Virus record (IMG/VR): IMGVR_UViG_3300037418_000929
DNA length: 30,805 nt
Strand: one strand, 5' to 3'
DNA from: an uncultured virus (IMG/VR IMGVR_UViG_3300037418_000929)
Lineage: Duplodnaviria; Heunggongvirae; Uroviricota; Caudoviricetes
Shown: piece by piece, positions 15,167 through 30,359 of the stretch
Layout of the letters: each line of letters begins with the position of its first letter
How positions within the stretch are numbered: the first letter of the stretch is position 1
Translations under genes and position numbers: made by a program
The notes under the pieces: model-generated
The model's input: the letters and a program-made list of their open reading frames with translations, nothing else
Told to the model about the DNA's origin: nothing
Database searches by the model: none

Positions 15167-15214
15167 ATTCTTACTTCCTTTCTTAAATAATTGTGCGGCT
15201 TGGCTCTCCGACCG

Positions 15215-15281
15215 ACCCACCTTGGGAGAGGCTATGCGACCCGAAGGTTTCTGCTTTCGCTTCATCAGGCAAATGGTGGGC
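15215..15281 (-). ncRNA. Type I hammerhead ribozyme variant (copy 1)
   Basis: UGC-CUGAUGA-A GC GAAA GC A-GAA-ACC UUCG GGU-C-GCA inside outer stem GCCCACC/GGUGGGU; intergenic. Confidence 0.72.
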
Positions 15282-15328
15282 TGCGTCCCCAACTCTACCG
15301 CACTGGGGGACCTGTGCTCTGTTAGTTC

Positions 15329-21134: not shown

Positions 21135-21319
21135 AAACTCCCATTCTCGTCATAGATTGGAGGACACTTGGACAGAAATATCTGCCACTTACCTAAACAA
21201 TGGTCGAAATCACTGATACTGTCGCATCTCTTAACATACTCCAGCGAACCTTCTAAAAGAGAAATCATTTCATCCTTGCTCGGATATGAGTTGTCGAAAT
21301 CCGCTGGCGTAGTCATCAA
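21131..21319 (-). CDS. Small hypothetical protein
   Basis: Fills the gap between ATP-grasp and next gene; start uncertain. Confidence 0.5.
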   Translation of the reverse strand: MMTTPADFDNSYPSKDEMISLLEGSLEYVKRCDSISDFDHCLGKWQIFLSKCPPIYDENGSL

Positions 21320-22007
21320 CTGTACTCCCTTCTAATCCCGGTGCGGTGTTGACTTCGAGGACGTAGGCCCGCTGTCTTTCTTCGTTCCAGATAATATCCA
21401 CTGCTCCAAAATCCAATCCAAGGGCACCCGTGGCCTTGATTGCCTGTTCTTCAACTCCGACAGGGGGATTAACGTCATTCCTGACGAAGATAAAACCATT
21501 TCCATGATTCCTTACTTTCCAGTTTGGATTGTCGCAGCGTGGATCACGGGCCTTTCTTTGGACCAGCACGACTCGCTTTCCGACCACGTGAACTCGATAC
21601 TCAGCTTTCTTGGGGACGTACTGGACGTAGAGAGGAGCACTCGGCAAGTCTCCGGCGTCTCGCAGTTCGATACCTTCGCCAGAATGTCCTGAAAGCTTGT
21701 GCCGGACAACCGTAAGGCCTTTCCAGTTAACCTGAGATACGTCAGCAGCAAAACTTGGCGTAGAAACCCCCGCATCCTGAAATCTACGGAAGGATGCAAG
21801 CTTGTTGGCAGCGGTCGCAACGTTTCCCGCGAGGTTGAGGCATGATAGATTGCCTGCATTGGAATCTCCCCAGTTGATGATGATATCGCCGGGACGGCGT
21901 ATATACGTGGAGCCCTCTTTCTTGAGGACTTTACCCCCGAGGACGTCGGCCAACGCCTTGGCTGACCGACTCCCTTGCTTATACGGATTGATTCTGATGC
22001 GTGTCAT
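21270..22007 (-). CDS. ATP-grasp peptide ligase (RimK/glutathione synthetase-like)
   Basis: IINWG, ANKL, GHSGEGI, EYRVHV, LGLDFGAVD, VLEVNTAPG. Confidence 0.92.
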   Translation of the reverse strand: MTRIRINPYKQGSRSAKALADVLGGKVLKKEGSTYIRRPGDIIINWGDSNAGNLSCLNLAGNVATAANKLASFRRFQDAGVSTPSFAADVSQVNWKGLTVVRHKLSGHSGEGIELRDAGDLPSAPLYVQYVPKKAEYRVHVVGKRVVLVQRKARDPRCDNPNWKVRNHGNGFIFVRNDVNPPVGVEEQAIKATGALGLDFGAVDIIWNEERQRAYVLEVNTAPGLEGSTVDDYASGFRQLISEQG

Positions 22008-22009
22008 AC

Positions 22010-23113
22010 TTATCCTTGAGCAAAAGTATTGGTGTTAATCGTGAATGCGTGAGCTGCGTTTAGATTCTGTTGCAGGTTTTGCATCGCTTGCATCTCAGCT
22101 GCGTTCCACTGATTTCCGGCAAATGTGTTCCCGTCCTCAGGCAAGTCCGGCTCAACGGCAACCCCGTAACCTCCCGCCACAACACGTCGAGTCTTCTTCG
22201 CAGTCTTCCTACCGAAAGGGTCGGAGGCAACCTTAACAGGATTGAACGTCGACCAGTCTCTTGAGTACGCAATGTCCTGAGCGAACCGCATCCCCTCGAA
22301 CAGCGAAGCCGAGACGTTGACTTCGTTCTGTACTGCTTGAAGGATAGCCGGAGCTTCGTTGCCGAACAACTCCGTGAAGAACTCCATCGGACCTTGGATG
22401 GAGAACCGTTCGATGATGGTCCGCGGGTCTGTGTACTTCTCACTTTCGTCGTACAGACGTTTGAGGATGCGAACCCACTGCTTCACCGGAGCGGCTTCGG
22501 TCAGTCCTCGCATGGTTCGGAACTCCACGGACCCGAACTTGTACAGCGCGGAGACGTTCAAGGCCGAGTAGTGCAGCCCTTCGGTGTCCATGCCGTACTC
22601 GCCTTTGTTCTCGAACCAGTTCTTGACCTCCGTAATAATAGCCGGTCCGTCCTTGGCACGAATGCAGAACAAGTTGCCTGCCCTGTGGTCCCCGCAGAAG
22701 TGCGACAAGACTTCCTCACAGATGAACCACAGAGCCAGCAGAGACGCCAGCCGGTTCTGGTAGAACGAGAGTACGTTAAGGTGGACGTGGACGCTGGTAC
22801 GCACGCTCTCGGCGAGCACGGCCTTGTTGACGGCGAACTCAGCCCAAAGGGCGTCTACGGCTGCGTCAACCTCGGTGAAGTCCAGCGGCTTACTAAGTAC
22901 AAACTCGCCGTTGTCTGCTCCACGCAGAGAACCGTCTTGGTGGTATCCCCAGTACGTAGCCACCTGAGGCAGCTTCATCTTGGCGAACGCCCCCGGCGTC
23001 TTTGACTCGCACTCAATTTCGAGGCCGACGTGTCCTTTCTTGACCCGCAAGCCAAGTTGTCCGGCAATCGTCAGGTCTTCGCCGATCTTACTCGTCTTTT
23101 TAACAAAAACCAC
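22010..23113 (-). CDS. COOH-NH2 ligase (amidoligase, glutamine synthetase-like fold)
   Basis: GLEIECE, DGSL, EFV, TSVHVH, YSALN, GSVEFR; GGAG SD before GTG 23113. Confidence 0.9.
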   Translation of the reverse strand: MVFVKKTSKIGEDLTIAGQLGLRVKKGHVGLEIECESKTPGAFAKMKLPQVATYWGYHQDGSLRGADNGEFVLSKPLDFTEVDAAVDALWAEFAVNKAVLAESVRTSVHVHLNVLSFYQNRLASLLALWFICEEVLSHFCGDHRAGNLFCIRAKDGPAIITEVKNWFENKGEYGMDTEGLHYSALNVSALYKFGSVEFRTMRGLTEAAPVKQWVRILKRLYDESEKYTDPRTIIERFSIQGPMEFFTELFGNEAPAILQAVQNEVNVSASLFEGMRFAQDIAYSRDWSTFNPVKVASDPFGRKTAKKTRRVVAGGYGVAVEPDLPEDGNTFAGNQWNAAEMQAMQNLQQNLNAAHAFTINTNTFAQG

Positions 23114-23129
23114 CTTGTCGTCTCCAAAG

Positions 23130-23897
23130 TTATTGCCTGAGTTTAATGTCGTGGAACTGGCGGGTTTCTTCAACCGCCTCTTTAAGATGAGCAAACTTCT
23201 TGCCAAGTTCAACCGTAGGACGCTTGGTCGGAGGCACAATCCCAACCACGTCAGTTTTGTACCCGAGAAAGAAAGTGTCCATCGGACCACGGACAATCGC
23301 GAAGTTCCTGTGGCAAGCCACCGAAGTGTTCTCCACGTTCGGGTCCAACATGTTCTCCATGCACTCTTCAGCACTCGGATGATTTCCTTTCACACAGTCG
23401 TAGAACTCCGGTCCGACGAGGCTGTCGAGACTGTTGTTGCCCACTCTCGACCGATCCGTAGTGACGGGATTACATTCGACCATCTGGCGGATCAAACCCT
23501 GCTGAGTCCTGCGTTCGGGTGAACGCTCCAAGAACAGGGCCCTGCCGTTTCGGTTCATCATACCGAGGGAAAACGGACGGAACTTGTTAAACGCCGGACT
23601 GTTGGCTTGTTTACGAAGAAGCTTCGTGTCTTTGTTCTCTTCCATCCACTTGTCCAGTGCAGGACCAAGCCGCTGATCCTGTCCCGGATACTGGGACACC
23701 GCCAGTGGGAACTTTCCGTTTTTGGCTGCCTCGTTCACGCTGTCTTGCACCGGCCAAAGATACAGCCGGAAGATGCCGTCTGCCCTGTGATTGGTGATTG
23801 CGATAACTCGAACAGGTTCACCGTCGTACGTGACCACGGTGTCGTAGAGGCGACGTTGCATCTCCTCTAGGTTTTCGTAGAAGTTGGGATGGAGCAT
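23130..23897 (-). CDS. Hypothetical protein within ligase cluster
   Basis: 255-aa ORF tightly packed between the two COOH-NH2 ligases; no motif recognised. Confidence 0.75.
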   Translation of the reverse strand: MLHPNFYENLEEMQRRLYDTVVTYDGEPVRVIAITNHRADGIFRLYLWPVQDSVNEAAKNGKFPLAVSQYPGQDQRLGPALDKWMEENKDTKLLRKQANSPAFNKFRPFSLGMMNRNGRALFLERSPERRTQQGLIRQMVECNPVTTDRSRVGNNSLDSLVGPEFYDCVKGNHPSAEECMENMLDPNVENTSVACHRNFAIVRGPMDTFFLGYKTDVVGIVPPTKRPTVELGKKFAHLKEAVEETRQFHDIKLRQ

Positions 23898-23900
23898 GGT

Positions 23901-24740
23901 TTAAATCACTGACACAAGAGGATAGTGAATCGACCGGAACAACATGCTGGACCTGTCTCCTGTGTTAATCAGGTCGACGATTGCCGAGTTGTACTTCTTG
24001 TACGTCCCCTTGGACAACTCGTTGGTGGACATCGCATCCACGGCCCGCTGAAGCCTGTTCCAAACGTCTTTGCGGAGTTGCTTCGACGTAATCCAGAAGT
24101 TACTCAAGACCCTGTACTCAACTCCGTAAGGCTTCGGACGAAACGCCCCGGCCTTGCCATACAGTTGACGGCGGGTTACGTCTGCGTCCTTCTGAACAGA
24201 CCACGCCCCGAGAAACCAGTCGAGTTGCTTCACGAGATCGCGGCAGTGGCCTACGTGGATTTCGTCCGTCACCGGCATCGGCTCGTCTGCGCACCATCCG
24301 ATGTGGACGTGGCCCGCTGCGGTACGCAGGAGCGGGTCTTCCGTGGTATCTGGATACGGGTTCACTTCACCCGACCAAGCGTTGAAGTCAGGGTCACACC
24401 CCAACTCCTTCGCCTTAGGCGGTTGAGCATCCATGACCGACTCGGAGAAGCGAACAGCCGGTTCGATGCGGAACCCGTACCCCTTCGGCAGCATTCCTTT
24501 CAGCTGCTTCAGAACGGTTACGATGTTGTCGTTCCACTCGTCGAAAGAACTTGCGGGGTCGATGTTGAATTCTGCCGCCATTCCGTCCACCTGAACCGCA
24601 CCTTTGTCCACTTTGTGTGGCTCTTGTTTTGTTCCGGGGATCAGATCGACGGCAGAAACTAGTTCGTTCTTCTCGTTGGTAATGAACAACTCGGGATCAC
24701 AACCGAACGTGAACCCTTCGACACAGTGTAGTGCAGTCAT
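23901..24740 (-). CDS. phiEco32-like COOH-NH2 ligase type 2
   Basis: GCDPELF, DG.AAEFN, GCDPDFNAW, RTAAGHVHIG, RRQLYGKAGAFRPKPYGVEYRVLSNFW. Confidence 0.93.
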   Translation of the reverse strand: MTALHCVEGFTFGCDPELFITNEKNELVSAVDLIPGTKQEPHKVDKGAVQVDGMAAEFNIDPASSFDEWNDNIVTVLKQLKGMLPKGYGFRIEPAVRFSESVMDAQPPKAKELGCDPDFNAWSGEVNPYPDTTEDPLLRTAAGHVHIGWCADEPMPVTDEIHVGHCRDLVKQLDWFLGAWSVQKDADVTRRQLYGKAGAFRPKPYGVEYRVLSNFWITSKQLRKDVWNRLQRAVDAMSTNELSKGTYKKYNSAIVDLINTGDRSSMLFRSIHYPLVSVI

Positions 24741-24759
24741 AGTCAGTCTTCTCCGTTAG

Positions 24760-24939
24760 TTACATAAGCCAATAAATTATTTGAGCAGGGATCGCATTCC
24801 CTAGAATTAGCGTGATGAAGTACAAAGCCCACCCCAAAGGCCCCTCTACAACTTCAACGCCTAGATACAGGGCTAGGCTGAAGACAGCCACTTCGTAGGC
24901 GGCTATAAAGCAAATCAACAACGCAATGGCGATAATCAT
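24760..24939 (-). CDS. Small two-TM membrane protein (59 aa, not in ORF track)
   Basis: MIIAIALLICFIAAYEVAVFSLALYLGVEVVEGPLGWALYFITLILGNAIPAQIIYWLM; AGGAG SD. Confidence 0.75.
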   Translation of the reverse strand: MIIAIALLICFIAAYEVAVFSLALYLGVEVVEGPLGWALYFITLILGNAIPAQIIYWLM

Positions 24940-24948
24940 TGATAGCTC

Positions 24949-26040
24949 CTAAGCAACTTGAGGTAGTTCTTCTACGTAAATTCTCGTCTTCTCTGAGTTG
25001 GAGAACGACGAGTGATCGGGGCAGAGAATGATTTCGTCTTTCTTATAAATCGTAATTCCTTTATCTCCGTACTCGATCTTCGCCTCGCAGAACGTACAAC
25101 CGTTGGCTGCCATTCCTTCGAACTCCTCACGAGTGATGTGCCCCGCGTACGGATTCACCTTGGACCCTTCAACGGTTACGAAAGGAAGAGGATCAGTCCT
25201 TCCACGGGAGATCGTCGTCGAGGAATTCGTCTTCTTCCACGGGCTTTTGGATGGGGTGTGGACTCCAAAGTTTGGCGAGGCTTGAGAGAAAGGGGCCGGC
25301 TCCTTACCCTCCAGCTTCTTGCAGACGGGTTTCTGAGCCTTGCCTGACATGAAGTCGGAGATGCTGTACTTGAAGTGGTAGTCCTCTGCGAACGCAAAGA
25401 AGCGGCAGCCTTGCTTGTCAGTTTTGATTTCCCTGTTGGCAAGGTGCCGGATACCAGAGTGAATCGTCTGCCACTCGGAGGCGTAGTACAGGAAGCGGTT
25501 GTCCTTAGTCACCGCGTTCCACAGACTGCGCTCTTTGTTGCGGAGGAAGTTAATCGTGCCTTCTTTAAGATCAACCCACGTAATCGCCCACGCACCTTCG
25601 CACAGCTTAATCGTCTCTTCAATGCCGATGGTGGCGATTGCAGCGATCAGCGCCATGCTGTCCACGGGAAACTTCTCGCCGACGGCCTTCTCTAAGTCGT
25701 TGTGGCTGGTGCCGAACAGCGTCCCGTTGTGTGCCCCGACGATGTGTCCGATGTGATACGGATGCGCGTTGAAGTCGTTGACACCACCGCGAGTTGCCTT
25801 CCGGTTGTGACCTAGAAAAGCACACGACTGATTGGCGTTAAGAGCCTCCTTGAACTTCGGCATTTCAAAAAGGTGCAGCGGGTGACTGGCCATTTTCGCA
25901 ATCCGGACGTCTCCGTTCGAGCGGATCGCAGCCATTCCCGTAGAGTCTTCGCCCCTCCAGAAATCGTCCAACAGCATTCTCTTCATCGGCTCTTCGTCAC
26001 AGTACTGAAGAGCACCAACCATTCCTACGAGTCCGCACAT
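24949..26040 (-). CDS. Class II (Ntn) glutamine amidotransferase with C-terminal Cys/His knuckle
   Basis: N-terminal MCG, RG.DSTG, GHNRKAT, NAHP, HNGT, VDS, RN.ER; CTFC...CPDH. Confidence 0.92.
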   Translation of the reverse strand: MCGLVGMVGALQYCDEEPMKRMLLDDFWRGEDSTGMAAIRSNGDVRIAKMASHPLHLFEMPKFKEALNANQSCAFLGHNRKATRGGVNDFNAHPYHIGHIVGAHNGTLFGTSHNDLEKAVGEKFPVDSMALIAAIATIGIEETIKLCEGAWAITWVDLKEGTINFLRNKERSLWNAVTKDNRFLYYASEWQTIHSGIRHLANREIKTDKQGCRFFAFAEDYHFKYSISDFMSGKAQKPVCKKLEGKEPAPFSQASPNFGVHTPSKSPWKKTNSSTTISRGRTDPLPFVTVEGSKVNPYAGHITREEFEGMAANGCTFCEAKIEYGDKGITIYKKDEIILCPDHSSFSNSEKTRIYVEELPQVA

Positions 26041-26897
26041 TATTCTTTCTCTCCCTTCTTGGCCGGACTCGGAAGGCCGAGAATGACCGAACGCTTGTGT
26101 CTGTAACGCTGTTCTTCAAGATACACGTGAGGGTTGTTGAGGATGTACTTCTCAACCATTTCGAGGCACCAGACGGTGTAGCGGATGTACCCCGCGTACT
26201 CGGGATGCCCTTGGAAGCCGAGGCAGCAAGTTTCAGGAAGGAAAAACGCCTCGACGTCCTTCGTCCTGCCCGTTTGCTTCTGAGACGGCTCAGGACCATA
26301 CCACCGCTCGTCGGAGCAGAAGATGAACCCGAGGACTTCCATCCCCTCGCCTTGGATTACGGCTTGATGGTGAGTGGATGAAATCTTGTCGAGGTATTGC
26401 CCGTTCCCCGGTGTAGGCACCATTGGATGCTCGCCGTTGTGCTTGTCGAGGTGTTGAATAAGTTTGTATCCGTTCATCGCAGCCAAGAACTGCGCCCCAC
26501 GGCAAATCCCGAGCATCGGAATCCGCTTCTTCAAGCACTCGACGTACAGCTCCATGTCCCGCTTGTCTCGGGCGGGATCGACGCTGGTGAGTGCGTGTGG
26601 CTTTTCGTGATAGATGACCGGATCGACGTCCGCCCCACCGCAGAACACAACGAGGTCGGCCTCGTCCACTGTGTTGGCTTTGTAACACCGAGCCCTGCCG
26701 AACATCGCCCCCATTTGAGCTTCGTAAGTGTCCGGCTCGGAAATGTACACGTTCATGTACAGTTCGGGGTACTTCACCAGCGAAGACTTCATCAGCTGAA
26801 CTTCGGTCTTACCTTCGGCTTCAGACACTTCTGGCTCTTTCTTCGGTTTGTTGCTATTCGCAGCCATTGCGAGAGCCTTTCGTCTACGCGTGGACAT
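26040..26897 (-). CDS. Class I glutamine amidotransferase / peptidase C26 (PuuD-like gamma-glutamyl hydrolase)
   Basis: GGADVDP, GICRGAQ, STHHQ, FQGHPE; AAGGAGG SD before ATG 26897. Confidence 0.9.
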   Translation of the reverse strand: MSTRRRKALAMAANSNKPKKEPEVSEAEGKTEVQLMKSSLVKYPELYMNVYISEPDTYEAQMGAMFGRARCYKANTVDEADLVVFCGGADVDPVIYHEKPHALTSVDPARDKRDMELYVECLKKRIPMLGICRGAQFLAAMNGYKLIQHLDKHNGEHPMVPTPGNGQYLDKISSTHHQAVIQGEGMEVLGFIFCSDERWYGPEPSQKQTGRTKDVEAFFLPETCCLGFQGHPEYAGYIRYTVWCLEMVEKYILNNPHVYLEEQRYRHKRSVILGLPSPAKKGEKE

Positions 26898-27288
26898 AGT
26901 GGTGGTGTCCTCCTTCCCACACACCGTTCTCTACGAGCAGCGTGTCGTGAACTTCGGGGTTGTACTCGTACACCCACACCGTCCTGCCCTCTTCGGTTCG
27001 GTACTGCGACCGCCCGTAGTAGTTCGGATAGCCCTCGTAGTTGTCGAGCATCTGTGGGAGGATTTCATCCGTTATGCGGTACACTTCACCCGTGACCGTG
27101 GGTTCCTCTGGATGAAACCGAGCACCGGCTTCGGCCACAGCTTTGAACCCCGGAAAACCTCCCAACGAATACATCTTACCGTTGACACGATCTTCTCCTA
27201 CGAATTCGCTGCGGCCTTGCATGACGGAGCTGGCACCGAACCCGTGCTTGAGGGTTCCGTACACGAGGATGTGATCACCGACCTTCAC
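26884..27288 (-). CDS. Gamma-glutamylcyclotransferase (AIG2/GGACT-like)
   Basis: VYGTLK.G, GEVY, LD.YEG.P..Y.R; GGAGG SD before GTG 27288. Confidence 0.92.
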   Translation of the reverse strand: MKVGDHILVYGTLKHGFGASSVMQGRSEFVGEDRVNGKMYSLGGFPGFKAVAEAGARFHPEEPTVTGEVYRITDEILPQMLDNYEGYPNYYGRSQYRTEEGRTVWVYEYNPEVHDTLLVENGVWEGGHHHYVHA

Positions 27289-27610
27289 GGAGAGCCTCCA
27301 ATGCTTTAGGAAAGCAAGTGCCGTGAACATACGTACCGTATGTTCGAACCAAGGTCGCAGCGCCCCTGAATCCGAACGCGTCTAGTATTCGAGCAAGCCG
27401 CTCGCGCTCTTCCGCCGTGGGTTCGTCGGGGTTGATGATGTTGTAGCCATCAAATCTTCGGCCGTTGGGCCCGATGTAAGTGCCGTCTGGATTGCGGTAG
27501 ACAAGCTGACGAGCCTTGTCGCAAATAAGTCGACCGTCGGAATGAAACGCCACCAGAGTGACTATCGAACCATTTCTGCACTTGTATTCCTTACCGATTT
27601 CCCACTTCAT
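27275..27610 (-). CDS. Hypothetical protein (MKWEIGKEYKCRNG...)
   Basis: AAGGAG SD before ATG 27610. Confidence 0.7.
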   Translation of the reverse strand: MKWEIGKEYKCRNGSIVTLVAFHSDGRLICDKARQLVYRNPDGTYIGPNGRRFDGYNIINPDEPTAEERERLARILDAFGFRGAATLVRTYGTYVHGTCFPKALEALREGR

Positions 27611-28499: not shown

Positions 28500-28901
28500 T
28501 CACCTAACCCCCATAATTCTCACGGGTTCATCTCTCCACCAGTCCGGAACTTTGTCGTCCCGACAGTTTCCTGTACACTTGTGGAATACGTTGCACCAAC
28601 CGCCGGTGGAGTTGTGGAACCGAGACACGAGCCGAAAGTCCCTGTCCTTCAGTTCTTTGATCCAGCGCGGAGAAGACGTGATTTGTCCATCTGTGAGAAT
28701 AACCTCAACGAGCTTGCCCCGGTTGTTTTCGGTGTTAGGTCCGACCTCAGCAAGTTTCTTTTTGAACTGTGTCAAAAACGTTGTGTACCGTGGCTTACCC
28801 GTCCTTGAGCTGTAGCCGTTGAAAACACGTGACGTCGGTCCGCCGAATCCCCACAGGTGGCGAACGCCACAGCAGTTGCCGCCGTGTTGTGACAAGTTCA
28901 T
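28500..28901 (-). CDS. CC-motif hypothetical protein, paralog 3
   Basis: NCCGVRHLWGF...VILTDGQ...RWIKELKDRDFRLV..F.N; GGAG SD. Confidence 0.75.
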   Translation of the reverse strand: MNLSQHGGNCCGVRHLWGFGGPTSRVFNGYSSRTGKPRYTTFLTQFKKKLAEVGPNTENNRGKLVEVILTDGQITSSPRWIKELKDRDFRLVSRFHNSTGGWCNVFHKCTGNCRDDKVPDWWRDEPVRIMGVR

Positions 28902-29471
28902 GGATGCTTCTCCGTTGCTCGTGTGTGTGAAAAATCGTGATAGATGAATGTGAGCAGTTGTTAACCGAGAATGCTCAGCTCGTCGGCGCGTGGATGGTTG
29001 AGGGGAGAGCTTAAGTCACCCTCTGTCGTGATCCAGTGGCCTAACTGAAATTGTTTTAGGGGAGATTGTCTCTCGACCCACAGGACGTGGGGAGATTACG
29101 TTAAATCGTAAGGTTCTTCACTCGGGGCTTGGAGCCGCAGAGGAACCTCGCTTCGATCTTACTTGTACTTGTGGAAGTGACCATCGTTCCGGTCTTTCTC
29201 GTTGACGTCTCACTGTTGTCGTGAGACTTGCCCTCGTGCAGCTTGAGCCCCCGCCCTCGCTGTTTGCTTAAAGTTGGCTGGCTTAAATGGCTCTTATCCG
29301 TCGGCCAGCCAGCGACGGAACCATTCGCACTAATTACAAAACTATCTCTATCTCTCTATGTCTCTAGTTTAACTTAAACTCTTAAGTCTTCATAGTCCGT
29401 TCCTCCTTTATTCACACGTCGGCGTGAATACTTCAAAAGAATAGGTGGTGAGCTTAGGTACTCATTTATTC
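28902..29471. ncRNA. Structure-rich non-coding leader with pseudoknots
   Basis: No credible long ORF; many hairpins; H-type pseudoknots at 28951-28982 and 29275-29325. Confidence 0.4.
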
Positions 29472-29539
29472 CCCGACTGGGAGGACTCCACGCGACGCCG
29501 TAGCGTTTCTGCTTGCGCTTCGTCAGGCGAAATGTCGGG
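29472..29539 (-). ncRNA. Type I hammerhead ribozyme variant (copy 2)
   Basis: CGC-CUGACGA-A GC GCAA GC A-GAA-ACGC UACG GCGU-C-GCG inside outer stem CCCGAC/GUCGGG; intergenic. Confidence 0.72.
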
Positions 29540-29584
29540 CCAGATGCTCCAATGTCCTCACCTCGGGAGCCAACGCCTCTTTAA

Positions 29585-30187
29585 TTACTTCAGCGAAACG
29601 ATCCGCATCGCCGCACCAGCCCGAGGCTTGTGGCAGCGGTCGAACAGTTCTTGCCACTTGTGCGGGGCGACTTCGCGCAGCACGGCCTCAACCAGTGCCT
29701 TGTCGATCACCTTGCTTCCGGCGTTCTTCTTGACGGAGATTGAGAACTCCGCCGAGTTGTACGTCATCTGCGTTTCGCCTTCGACGTAATCGGAAGGATC
29801 ACCGAACACACCTTCTTTTGCAGCTTGTTCAGCCGCTTGCTCAAGGCGCTTGTTACAACGCCGAGCTACGTGATCCCACATGGCGAACTCGGCAGCCGCC
29901 TGTCCGTTGTTGTGACTGCGAGACACAGGGAATTGCGTCTGAGGCAGCTTCTCCGTACCGAAGGCGTTGATGAACCCGTCTAACGAGTCCTTCGCGTCCT
30001 TCGCCGTCTTGCCTTCGGGGTCGGCGTGTTCCGGTAGGTCCAGAACTACGTCCACCTTCATCTGCGGAGGCTGCTCGACACCGCCGAACATTTCCTTCAC
30101 TCTGTCTTTGCTGTTAGGGGAAGGCGGCTGCGAGGTTGCCCCCGCCTCCGGGGCTTTGATGCCCAGCGTCTTTCGTTTGTTAGCCAT
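29585..30187 (-). CDS. Hypothetical early protein (200 aa)
   Basis: AAGGAG SD before ATG 30187; no family recognised. Confidence 0.75.
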   Translation of the reverse strand: MANKRKTLGIKAPEAGATSQPPSPNSKDRVKEMFGGVEQPPQMKVDVVLDLPEHADPEGKTAKDAKDSLDGFINAFGTEKLPQTQFPVSRSHNNGQAAAEFAMWDHVARRCNKRLEQAAEQAAKEGVFGDPSDYVEGETQMTYNSAEFSISVKKNAGSKVIDKALVEAVLREVAPHKWQELFDRCHKPRAGAAMRIVSLK

Positions 30188-30359
30188 GTTCTTCTCCTTC
30201 GAGAATGTTCGCACAAATCAACTCAATTCGCTTGCGTTCTACAATCGACGCCGCTACGTTTAAGCCTGCGCCAACGAACGCCTTAGCGGCGAACGAGCCT
30301 TCTATTTCTTCAGCCTTAATGGCGTCGACTAGCTCGCTAAGTAACTTATCGTGATCCAT
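30180..30359 (-). CDS. Small hypothetical protein (MDHDKLL..., 59 aa)
   Basis: 3' part of the listed 101-aa ORF; overlaps the next gene start. Confidence 0.5.
   Translation of the reverse strand: MDHDKLLSELVDAIKAEEIEGSFAAKAFVGAGLNVAASIVERKRIELICANILEGEEHG

Follow-up and report, generated by a model that had tools for sequence, protein, structure and literature searches.

The window is the whole 30,805-nt stretch of DNA of the uncultured virus IMGVR_UViG_3300037418_000929, and it carries two hammerhead-like elements on the minus strand, here called copy 1 and copy 2. Both lie directly after stop codons, between same-strand genes, and the setting of both is contained in a same-strand ORF run from ~30.8 kb to ~9.7 kb, which we take to be one leftward transcription unit. 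The element of copy 2 starts at 29575, which is 9 nt past the stop codon (29587-29585) of ORF 29585-30214. The ORFs flanking the two copies had no Pfam or PHROG match and no common functional theme. No promoter-like site was found in 28800-30300, and we rejected a sigma-70 promoter reading of the upstream TTGACA-like motif, since the window has GAGGACA and the surrounding helices covary. Among the 11 matching sequencing runs listed there was no RNA sequencing run; all were DNA-type, from soil or rhizosphere.

The interval described in an earlier note, 29539-29472, is only the middle of the conserved element 29575-29447, and the surrounding domain was overlooked there. The features of copy 2 are listed below in 5' to 3' order. 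A1, A2 and A3 are alignments, of which A1 holds hammerhead-bearing relatives and A3 hammerhead-less ones.

29570-29575, minus strand: conserved 5' junction CGUUGG (family consensus CGUGGG), columns invariant or nearly so in A1 and A3
29546-29570, minus strand: hairpin Pa, 5 bp (29570-29566 with 29550-29546); its loop holds the Pk1 5' strand and GACAUU (consensus UGACAU)
29557-29562, minus strand: Pk1 5' strand GGUGAG in the Pa loop, pairing with CUCACC at 29452-29447
29540-29546, minus strand: junction CAUCUGG, linking Pa to P2; its CATCT shows no variation in A1, A2 or A3, the motif being demanded by the A1 filter and by the A3 search pattern
29534-29539, minus strand: 5' strand CCCGAC of P2 (outer stem I), pairing with GUCGGG at 29477-29472
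29527-29533, minus strand: linker AUUU (29533-29530) and stem I 5' strand CGC (29529-29527)
29520-29526, minus strand: hammerhead core strand C3 U4 G5 A6 C7 G8 A9 (CUGACGA)
29510-29519, minus strand: stem II, with A10.1 (29519) and A11.1 (29510) flanking two G-C pairs, and a GCAA tetraloop
29495-29509, minus strand: G12 A13 A14 (29509-29507) and stem III ACGC-UACG-GCGU (29506-29495), with A15.1-U16.1
29493-29494, minus strand: predicted cleavage site C17 (29494) / G1.1 (29493), from hammerhead numbering
29487-29493, minus strand: stem I 3' strand GCG (29493-29491) and conserved UGGA (29490-29487), together corresponding to CGYGGA of the hammerhead-less domain
29458-29486, minus strand: pseudoknot Pb, GUCCUC (29486-29481) with GAGUAC (29463-29458), 5 of 6 pairs and one C.U mismatch; between its two strands lie CCA, the P2 3' strand (29477-29472) and GAAUAAAU (29471-29464)
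29447-29457, minus strand: junction CUAAG (29457-29453) and Pk1 3' strand CUCACC (29452-29447), where the domain ends

We re-read the minus strand of 29539-29472 and obtained the same letters as had been written before, CCCGAC AUUU CGC CUGACGA A-GC-GCAA-GC-A GAA ACGC-UACG-GCGU C GCG UGGAGUCCUCCCA GUCGGG. GUC occupies 29496-29494 and the predicted scissile bond is therefore 29494|29493, where the earlier note had correctly placed it. A descriptor search of the window with CTGANGAAGCGNRAGCAGAAAC gave exactly two matches (15268-15247 and 29526-29505, both minus strand), and none in any of 100 dinucleotide-preserving shuffles. Both copies have the type I core, which in copy 2 consists of CUGACGA (29526-29520), GAA (29509-29507) and C17 (29494). 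Its A15.1-U16.1 pair is present, N1.1-N2.1 is paired, stems II and III are closed and stem I is open. Stem I has 3 bp, the fourth pair being U.U. The pair 10.1-11.1, which is normally Watson-Crick (G-C), is replaced by A29519.A29510. We regard copy 2 (29539-29472, minus strand) as a convincing and complete type I hammerhead core, for which self-cutting is predicted.

The order of the blocks is that of type I hammerheads in Rfam (RF00163), namely stem I 5' strand, CUGANGA, closed stem II, GAA, closed stem III, GUC and stem I 3' strand, and all catalytic nucleotides are present. Copy 2 differs from RF00163 in having A.A in place of G10.1-C11.1 and in its short stem I, which runs into a pseudoknotted domain, whereas RF00163 has a simple helix with a loop-loop contact. 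As to a tertiary contact that would align stems I and II, the covarying Pb and P2 lie on either side of stem I, whereas no pairing partner for the stem II loop, which is GNRA-like in most sequences, was found across the alignment of 73 relatives. The RF00163 model aligns copy 2 in the exact type I block frame, with a score of 11.3 bits in a 51-nt search against a gathering score of 34. At gathering score no family of Rfam 15 matched over the hammerhead or the domain in the window, for both copies, or in 60 related loci, and no hammerhead match appeared at E ≤ 10 over 401 nt around copy 2. The expectation that standard descriptors would miss this element was thus borne out. For relatives whose stem II is canonical, the scores are 21-29 bits with Hammerhead_1 (RF00163) and 22-31 bits with HH9, also below threshold.

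In order to assess the proposed structure, we used an alignment (A1) of 73 distinct hammerhead-bearing relatives that were collected without constraint on stem II. Overall, 96.4% of the A1 cells are paired compared to 72.1% after shuffling, and 0 of 500 shuffles reached the observed value; with the partners slid, pairing dropped to 33-45%. Changes on both sides occur in 22 of 28 pairs. Pa is paired in 99.8% of A1 (5 of 6 pairs changed on both sides) and in 98.7% of the hammerhead-less alignment A3; the corresponding values for Pb are 98.9% (5 of 6) and 99.1%. P2 is 99.1% paired in A1, with both-side changes in all 6 pairs. Stem I (columns 145-148/196-199) is 96.2% paired, its core-adjacent pair being G-C in 42 relatives and C-G in 31, and stem III is 99.3% paired with covariation in 2 of 4 counted pairs. 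In the 73 relatives the best within-sequence helix for Pk1 has a mean length of 7.6 bp, versus 4.9 bp in cross-sequence controls, and it reaches at least 7 bp in 64 of the relatives; the window copy has 6 bp. These values agree with the earlier claim of changes that preserve the stems: covariation among the 73 relatives is seen in stem I, in stem III and in the outer helix. The core itself is strongly conserved. CUGANGA...GAAAC is kept in 85 of 89 untruncated loci, although the scan pattern specified neither motif; one of the 4 exceptions, mycobacteriophage Gaia, has a U3/A8 covariation, and two members carry G8-to-U. Position H17 is C in all 73 relatives, a value to be read with GTC having been part of the A1 search pattern.

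The helices around the core place copy 2 within a larger RNA. From the alignments, the copy 2 hammerhead is an insertion in the loop capping P2 of a conserved double-pseudoknot domain of ~130 nt (29575-29447). We defined a class-A domain by CGUGGG, CAUCUGG, CGYGGAG, GAAUAACUG and CUAG in order, together with the four helices Pa, Pk1, P2 and Pb; the corresponding motifs of copy 2 read CGUUGG, CAUCUGG, CGUGGAG, GAAUAAAUG and CUAAG, and each of the helices is present. Copy 2 is weaker than the family norm in its 3-bp stem I, the mismatch in Pb and the 5 bp of Pa. The host domain contains ~35 unpaired nucleotides that are nearly invariant. A covariance model built only from hammerhead-less domains (R1) matches 29443-29575 of the window at full length with 43.1 bits (E ~1e-11), compared to 51-68 bits for three relatives, and the alignment shows the hammerhead as a single insertion just before cCGUGGA. 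Elsewhere in the family the P2 loop holds other insertions, or none. The homology of the flanks to hammerhead-less domains is established here, along with the sequence, its conservation and the covariation of all helices.

Phage contigs carry the domain in three arrangements: hammerhead-less, with the hammerhead inside, and circularly permuted behind the hammerhead. The hammerhead-less form is represented by the 38 sequences of A3, in which Pa, P2 and Pb are each 98.7-99.6% paired. The permuted form occurs in the late leaders of E. coli prophages, between the antiterminator gene and the holin gene. It has the same host domain as the window, with the same conserved junction motifs, and R1 matches both of its halves in one such locus (L309). 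In the E. coli form the hammerhead is followed by the whole domain and stem II is canonical G-C, whereas in the window the hammerhead lies inside the domain and has A.A; the E. coli form also sits in an extra clamp helix between the two genes. The hammerhead family has >100 members in phage contigs. Close relatives are present in 148 of 5426 complete E. coli genomes, at one fixed site that has the late antiterminator gene on one side and the lysis genes on the other.

The A.A stem II of copy 2 recurs in copy 1 (AGCGAAAGCA), whose host domain is alike in topology and belongs to a different sequence class. Its features are as follows.

15193-15312, minus strand: hammerhead (15280-15216) and host domain of copy 1
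15311-15306 with 15290-15285, minus strand: Pa
15303-15298 with 15198-15193, minus strand: Pk1
15280-15275 with 15221-15216, minus strand: P2
15230-15225 with 15209-15204, minus strand: Pb
15238/15237, minus strand: predicted cut

The differences that the earlier note listed between copies 1 and 2 are all present: N7 (U and C, respectively), the stem II loop (GAAA and GCAA), the stem III loop (UUCG and UACG), stem I (UGC/GCA and CGC/GCG) and the outer helix (CCCACC/GGUGGG and CCCGAC/GUCGGG), the last with two compensatory pairs. The description of copy 2 as a second copy of the same variant holds for the A.A stem II, which is common to both, but not for the host domains; that of copy 2 is class A and that of copy 1 belongs to another class, and the class-A model R1 matches copy 2 only. 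Similarly, the AUUU linker and the CUCCCA element are present as stated, but that view of them was too narrow. Both are pieces of the host domain, AUUU being the linker between the outer helix and stem I and CUCCCA the 5' strand of a pseudoknot. In sequences of the copy 1 type (class C) the helices are in the expected windows in 7 of 7, with an ambiguous Pa assignment in 4. Classes C and D have the same topology as class A with different junction sequences.

We then considered the A.A pair. According to Perreault et al. 2011 (PMC3088659), no hammerhead base pair other than A15.1-U16.1 is more conserved than 10.1-11.1, and U.U is reported as the best-tolerated mispair at this position in minimal hammerheads; matches with a 10.1-11.1 mispair were rejected according to the methods. 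The same source counts natural U10.1.U11.1 hammerheads as active natural variation. On these grounds A.A may cost activity. Among our 73 relatives the states of 10.1/11.1 are A.A (31), G-C (22), U.U (15), C.A (4) and A-U (1), and no others; a standard pair is thus found in only 23, and 50 are non-Watson-Crick. The A.A flank persists although the inner stem II sequence varies, with at least 13 versions. With A.A in 31 of 73 among so restricted a set of states, we conclude that it is a selected, recurrent state and not decay; the earlier note had likewise inferred selection. The suggestion of a distinct subfamily, taken as one by descent, did not hold, since A.A, G-C and U.U replace one another inside a single family (26 changes over a 73-tip tree) and the stem II cassette is also found in type III hammerheads. 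In this hammerhead-bearing family, by comparison of its members, A10.1.A11.1 is an accepted alternative to G-C, and it probably extends the stack of non-canonical pairs beside A9.G12.

The mispair bears on whether copy 2 is a ribozyme at all. It could be a non-catalytic look-alike, a three-way junction that caps P2 and in which A.A and the 2-bp stem II abolish useful cleavage. The reported conservation of 10.1-11.1, the Rfam scores far under threshold and the acceptance of other insertions, or none, by the P2 loop are in line with this, and so is the minimum-free-energy (MFE) fold, which is not the hammerhead. For the isolated 68 nt, the MFE is -23.1 kcal/mol versus -15.4 kcal/mol for the hammerhead and -17.9 kcal/mol for the best structure retaining the hammerhead pairs, a preference of 5-8 kcal/mol, although the energy model is blind to pseudoknots and to the non-canonical core and is uninformative for pseudoknotted RNA. 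The folding z-score of the same 68 nt versus shuffles is an unremarkable -0.83. We nevertheless consider a look-alike unlikely. A scaffold would not need C3, U4, G5, A6, G8, A9, G12, A13 and A14, which are kept in the 85 of 89 loci, or the U3/A8 covariation of phage Gaia. In addition, AT-rich phage contigs contain 44 type III hammerheads in which the AGCGNRAGCA cassette, with its A.A, stands in quite different surroundings, and U.U hammerheads lie within reported active variation (PMC3088659, accessible part).

The competition between the hammerhead fold and a more stable alternative would also fit a conditional ribozyme, in which the domain would respond to a ligand, RNA or protein by turning a weakened hammerhead on or off, so that cleavage of the operon is regulated. 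The conserved junction nucleotides resemble an aptamer-like core, and a hammerhead with so minimal a stem I should rely on the domain for its activity. However, the domain is conserved also without any ribozyme, the variable gene context yields no ligand candidate, and classes C and D keep the topology with other junction sequences. We regard this possibility as the least probable of those considered, and a slight one.

Published comparisons were then used to place the fold. Like copy 2, the phage and prophage hammerheads of Perreault et al. 2011 are intergenic in phage operons, commonly have a 2-bp stem II and are often supported in their active fold by pseudoknots; both U10.1.U11.1 and the U3/A8 covariation reported there, the latter with earlier in-vitro activity cited, are also in the present family. 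Their pseudoknots link stem I/II loops or tails, whereas those of copy 2 belong to a separate domain that also exists ribozyme-free (PMC3088659, accessible part). In the available portion of the report on the hammerhead structure PDB 8YDC (PMC11300833), the core is likewise stabilised by a pseudoknot and not by a loop-receptor contact, and non-Watson-Crick pairs cap a helix. In 8YDC, however, the pseudoknot is in place of helix II and G10.1-C11.1 is standard, whereas helix II of copy 2 is an ordinary short hairpin with A.A and the pseudoknots are on the stem I side. In the comparison with published variants that the earlier note proposed, A10.1.A11.1 is absent among those named in the accessible main text of PMC3088659, and our search of mostly open literature, in main texts, found no natural A10.1.A11.1 hammerhead or such a double-pseudoknot domain. 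The supplementary alignments of Perreault et al. 2011 may hold members of the present family.

Our preferred reading, which we consider on balance probable, is that copy 2 is a type I hammerhead in the P2 loop of the double-pseudoknot domain that serves transcript punctuation and end protection. As the transcript emerges, Pa, P2, Pb and Pk1 would fold around the hammerhead and hold its 3-bp stem I in place. The hammerhead would cut between C29494 and G29493, so that the upstream RNA ends in a 2',3'-cyclic phosphate and the downstream RNA begins with a 5'-OH. The two cleavage products would be held to each other by P2, Pk1 and stem I, and we propose that this keeps both new ends hidden inside a compact knot. 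With copy 1 cutting at 15238/15237 as well, the long message would be divided, and the new RNA ends would be shielded from end-dependent RNases. Re-ligation of the clamped halves could limit net cleavage. Cleavage, the retention of two pieces and the biological role are what we infer for this element. RNase III hairpins in T7-like and lambda late transcripts cut polycistronic messages intergenically and leave protective end structures, which is the role proposed here for copy 2. RNase III sites require the host enzyme and give 5'-phosphate and 3'-OH products, whereas copy 2 would cut itself and give the termini described above. For prophage hammerheads in clusters, Perreault et al. 2011 proposed that long transcripts are split into gene-length mRNAs (PMC3088659, accessible part). 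A point against our reading is that around our relatives the orientation of neighbouring naive ORFs is mixed, with same-strand ORFs on both sides in 27 of 77 loci.

A possible, though clearly less probable, alternative is that the domain is the functional unit, as a stable small RNA or a cis element, and that the hammerhead is optional and nicks it or frees its 5' end. It would engage some conserved machinery of the host, for example RNA polymerase, an RNase or the enzymes of tRNA processing, and punctuation would be a side effect. There is no hammerhead in 40 of 41 distinct domain loci from one scan, and two hammerheads carry G8-to-U; the domain therefore does not need cleavage. The ~35 near-invariant unpaired nucleotides seem to go beyond the needs of end protection, and in both hammerhead-bearing arrangements the cut is placed 3-4 nt before the same GGAG. 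tRNA genes lie within ~35 nt at 8 of 20 tested hammerhead-less loci, and 18 of 91 hammerhead-bearing loci hold one, within 130 nt in 11 of the 18. On the other hand, the window has no tRNA gene, both copies are inside protein-coding operons, and the domain has no known partner. The catalytic core is strongly conserved wherever the hammerhead is present, so cleavage matters there. With a tRNA gene in only those 18 of 91 loci and none in the window, tRNA processing was rejected as a general role.

Kinship of the domain to tmRNA was also examined and rejected. The idea came from weak tmRNA_permuted and beta_tmRNA matches upstream of the E. coli-type element L120, with a shared 9-mer. The nhmmer profiles of both halves scored at or below shuffles versus E. 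coli tmRNA, the best score being 0.2 bits, below the best of 500 shuffles, and this chance-level similarity also weighs against the domain as the functional unit. The Rfam tmRNA families had no match over the domain in the window copy or in 20 hammerhead-less loci.

More tentatively, and as something we would not yet call probable, the hammerhead may be a movable accessory of an uncatalogued, widespread phage module, an interlocked double pseudoknot of ~100 nt. The module would occur bare (often in tRNA arrays), with the hammerhead in the P2 loop, or permuted behind the hammerhead; the self-nicking knot would make ends and then bury them, with the 10.1/11.1 mispairs (A.A, U.U and C.A; 50 of 73) tuned so that catalysis requires the folded module. 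The host domain, a conserved RNA fold that accepts both circular permutation and a ribozyme insert, is of structural interest and would be a natural insulator design. About two thirds of this one natural family have A.A, U.U or C.A at 10.1/11.1; such members escape any survey or Rfam threshold in which the pair is required, and hammerheads are under-counted by current surveys. The role of bacterial and phage hammerheads is still unknown according to the accessible part of a 2023 paper (PMC10085705). With >100 phage members and a fixed site in 148 of 5426 E. coli genomes, genetics and end-mapping are therefore within reach, and the movable-accessory reading, if true, would give phage hammerheads a defined and testable job in the late leaders of E. 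coli prophages.

The sequence that the earlier note had given for 29539-29472 on the minus strand is in exact agreement with the window, and this hammerhead (copy 2) consists of the following parts.

29529-29527 with 29493-29491, minus strand: stem I, CGC with GCG
29526-29520, minus strand: core strand, CUGACGA
29519-29510, minus strand: stem II, A-GC-GCAA-GC-A
29509-29507, minus strand: G12 A13 A14, GAA
29506-29495, minus strand: stem III, ACGC-UACG-GCGU
29494, minus strand: C17

Since this layout of core and stems places C17 at 29494, the cut is predicted between 29494 and 29493. The descriptor CTGANGAAGCGNRAGCAGAAAC matched the window twice, at 29526-29505 and 15268-15247 (both minus strand), and matched 0 of 100 shuffles; G001, a record of 48.9 kb that is rated complete and shares all sampled words of the window, contains the same two copies only. 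With Rfam 15, nothing reached the gathering score over the whole window and nothing was found at E≤10 in 29300-29700, while Hammerhead_1 in a search space of 51 nt aligned in the expected frame with stem II skipped (11.3 bits, where the gathering score is 34). When viral contigs were scanned for exact matches to the earlier note's descriptor, 96 loci came up, which we sorted by inspecting the printed sequences, the automatic classifier being too strict (25 of its 31 'other' loci were reassigned by eye). Type I hammerheads account for 46 loci in three sequence classes, namely A (the type of copy 2), C (the type of copy 1, the second hammerhead of the window) and D; another 44, from AT-rich contigs, are type III hammerheads situated immediately upstream of ribosome-binding sites, and the last 6 have the look of chance hits within coding sequence. 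A pooled Rfam search of 20 same-cassette loci gave none at E≤1 for any hammerhead family, and one type III example scored 23.2 bits against 48.5 for Hammerhead_3 (small search space). This recurrence across loci, together with the low Rfam scores, indicates that the stem II cassette with A.A at 10.1/11.1, the pair next to the core, is real, recurrent and sub-threshold for Rfam.

In order to collect relatives of copy 2, we used a scan that fixed CTGANGA, GAAAC and GTCSCGYGGA only and left stem II unconstrained. It gave at least 119 loci and, among the matches listed, 100 distinct extracted stretches, 72 of which carry the class A marks (upstream CATCT and downstream GAAYAA); among the remaining 28 listed, at least two are chance (L123 and L166) and most others are the permuted form described below. 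Those 72 and the window copy make up alignment A1 (73 sequences, among the matches listed), which shows that the copy 2 hammerhead forms the central part of a conserved and much larger RNA with the following layout.

29575-29570, minus strand: CGUUGG
29570-29566 with 29550-29546, minus strand: hairpin Pa
29562-29557 with 29452-29447, minus strand: pseudoknot Pk1, GGUGAG (in the Pa loop) with CUCACC
29546-29540, minus strand: CAUCUGG
29539-29534 with 29477-29472, minus strand: helix P2, then linker, hammerhead and UGGA
29486-29481 with 29463-29458, minus strand: pseudoknot Pb, GUCCUC with GAGUAC
Last in this order, minus strand: GAAUAAAU, then CUAAG

Pairing in A1 holds in 96.4% of 2043 cells, compared to 72.1% in shuffled alignments (0 of 500 reach the observed value) and 33-45% when partners were slid. 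Both sides change in 22 of 28 pairs, and pairing is at about 99% in each of Pa, P2, stem III and Pb. Pk1 is out of register in A1 and was therefore tested sequence by sequence; its best helix has a mean of 7.6 bp within a sequence versus 4.9 bp cross-sequence, and reaches at least 7 bp in 64 of the 73 sequences among the matches listed. G.U pairs are confined to the minus (element) strand, which fits an RNA of that polarity.

A scan free of bias on the core, in which GTC and the domain's 3' half were all that was specified, returned 91 loci (not de-duplicated), two of which are cut off at contig ends. CUGANGA...GAAAC is present in 85 of the 89 untruncated loci. Of the four exceptions, mycobacteriophage Gaia has UUGAUAA, the U3/A8 covariation described by Perreault et al. 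(PMC3088659); one has a one-base insertion (CUGAACGA) that also occurs in a Bacteroidetes genome match; and two have G8 changed to U, which probably leaves them inactive. Among prokaryotes, scanned with one genome for each species, there were 15 matches, 6 of them chance-like and 9 real (Lysobacter, Bordetella trematum, Pseudomonas nitroreducens, Marinibaculum, Sulfuriferula, and alphaproteobacterial, Rhizobiales, spirochaete and Bacteroidetes assemblies).

The domain also occurs without a hammerhead. Scanning for CGTGGG, CATCTRG and GAATAACTG at a spacing too short for a hammerhead gave 49 loci, 41 of them distinct (L337 looks like chance), in which P2 is capped by 2-6 nt that lead directly into CGYGGAG. 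Excluding L337, the truncated L338 and one duplicate stretch left 38 loci (alignment A3), with Pa paired at 98.7%, P2 at 99.6%, Pb at 99.1% and Pk1 at 68% in the MAFFT register; both partners change in 23 of 25 pairs, and the observed values were reached in 0 of 500 shuffles. A covariance model, R1, built from A3 alone matches positions 29443-29575 of the window along the whole model (43.1 bits, rough E 9e-12), the hammerhead being accommodated as one insertion immediately ahead of cCGUGGA, and it scores 51-68 bits on three other hammerhead-bearing members. The host domain is independent of the hammerhead. No Rfam family covers the hammerhead-less domain, and a likeness of the domain to tmRNA was tested for similarity and rejected. 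Other insertions (small hairpins in some cases, unrelated sequence of 15-35 nt in others) are found in the P2 loop or linker of L311, L323, L343 and L164, and this site appears to tolerate them. tRNA genes lie within about 35 nt of the domain in 8 of 20 hammerhead-less loci tested, and in L314 a weak match to the 3' end of the GOLLD RNA model (positions 1-105; 23.1 bits, E 0.005) directly precedes a hammerhead-less domain.

On the form found in E. coli prophages, as checked on L309, R1 matched the two halves of the domain in swapped order. The element there reads hammerhead, cut site, GGAG-Pb-P2(3')-GAAUAACUG-Pb-Pk1(3'), a hairpin, and finally CGUGGG-Pa(Pk1 5')-CAUCUGG-P2(5'). In both hammerhead-bearing arrangements, 3-4 nt separate the predicted cut from the same GGAG downstream of it. 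This permuted layout fits 19 distinct sequences, or 18 without L292, a viral contig with two class-A hammerhead-domain units in tandem. Among the 19, P2 has 6/6 pairs in 16, Pa 5/5 in 18 and Pb 6/6 in 15, and Pk1 has at least 6 bp in all. In the prophages the element lies between an antitermination gene and a holin gene; similar DNA is present in 148 of 5426 complete E. coli genomes, covering at least 80% of the query length in 3 and 79% in most among the matches listed. In one prophage late leader (L309, 3795-3865), a second copy of the long clamp helix (AACAGGUAAGAGCAUU... / ...GUGCUCUUAUCGUUGUG) lies upstream of the hammerhead unit and surrounds a cargo that is different and has no hammerhead. 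Upstream of the L120 hammerhead, tmRNA_permuted (25.9 bits) and beta_tmRNA (18.9 bits) match weakly, both below threshold. At 21 loci (L008, L022, L029, L047, L082, L111, L162, L210, L284, L394 and others), a small motif made of UGACA and, after it, a covarying hairpin of 5 bp closed by a GAAAGA loop adjoins the hammerhead-domain elements, upstream or downstream. We take this motif, which was looked for in the window and is absent there, to resemble a boxB-type hairpin.

Among the matches listed, the 73 sequences of A1 have A.A at 10.1/11.1 in 31, G-C in 22, U.U in 15, C.A in 4 and A-U in 1, and no other combination. The A.A flank encloses at least 13 covarying inner stems (e.g. GC/GC, GCC/GGC, GGC/GCC, GCAUC/GAUGC, GUGC/GCAC), which means that A.A is kept while its neighbours covary. 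On a tree from domain columns without stems II and III, noisy with about 150 columns, the 10.1/11.1 state requires 26 changes versus 29-41 (mean 35.3) in 300 label shuffles; the state is thus inherited, yet often exchanged. The earlier note had argued that stem II is selected rather than decaying, and this part stands, as A.A is an accepted alternative that is probably selected. Its proposal of a distinct subfamily does not, since with 26 changes A.A does not mark a separate lineage. In Perreault et al. 2011 (PMC3088659), a stem II of two pairs is common and a U10.1.U11.1 variant is reported, and the methods reject hits mispaired at N10.1-N11.1, which would explain why the A.A form is missing from models.

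The differences that the earlier note had listed between copies 1 and 2 are all as it described. Copy 1 has the topology of copy 2 with different junction sequences, and its class is smaller: seven class C sequences could be aligned, with helices in the expected windows and compensatory changes (the Pa assignment is ambiguous in 4/7), and with A.A in 6/7 and G-C in 1/7. R1 gave no match at E≤10 to copy 1 or to eight class C and D loci. The two copies are therefore members of two classes with a common architecture and stem II cassette, and are not recent duplicates.

This is a podovirus-like phage, with structural and lysis genes on the plus strand as far as 9.6 kb; the minus strand has one long run of same-strand ORFs with both hammerheads inside it, each directly after a stop codon.

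29587-29585, minus strand: stop codon; the copy 2 element starts 9 nt past it
15331-15329, minus strand: stop codon; the copy 1 element starts about 17 nt past it
Run, minus strand: ribonucleotide reductase, exonucleases, endonuclease VII, DNA polymerase A, primase-helicase
Run, minus strand: ATP-grasp, amidoligase, amidotransferase cluster

The ligase cluster that had been noted downstream of copy 2 was found about 2 kb downstream (21270-27330, minus strand), with three unassigned ORFs between. Its members are an ATP-grasp (RimK-like), an amidoligase, a COOH-NH2 ligase, two glutamine amidotransferases and a gamma-glutamyl cyclotransferase. The ~540 nt downstream of the copy 2 element (28902-29440, minus strand) have no ORF of at least 50 aa on the gene strand; a hairpin lies at about 29429-29408 and is followed by a strong Shine-Dalgarno sequence and a three-codon ORF (AUG AAG ACU UAA, 29392-29381). 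The stretch may function as a leader, as a small RNA or as a regulatory region.

The ribozyme class is already known. In Rfam 15 and the literature searched (few subscription journals, no supplementary alignments), both A.A (and C.A) at 10.1/11.1 as the majority state of a natural family and the modular union of a hammerhead with a permutable double-pseudoknot domain are absent. At the level of sequence, we have established that the core and the helices are present, that the helices covary, and that the flanks are homologous to an independent domain. The hammerhead would cleave at 29494|29493, and P2, Pk1 and stem I would then hold both products, with the 2',3'-cyclic phosphate and 5'-OH ends buried. 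The two elements would split the leftward message of the phage into three parts. However, for the isolated 68 nt a thermodynamic model favours a different fold, stem I of the window copy is 3 bp long and its Pb has a mismatch, and naive-ORF orientation around relatives is mixed. It also counts against this reading that hammerhead-less and G8U members exist and the domain is thus useful without cleavage.
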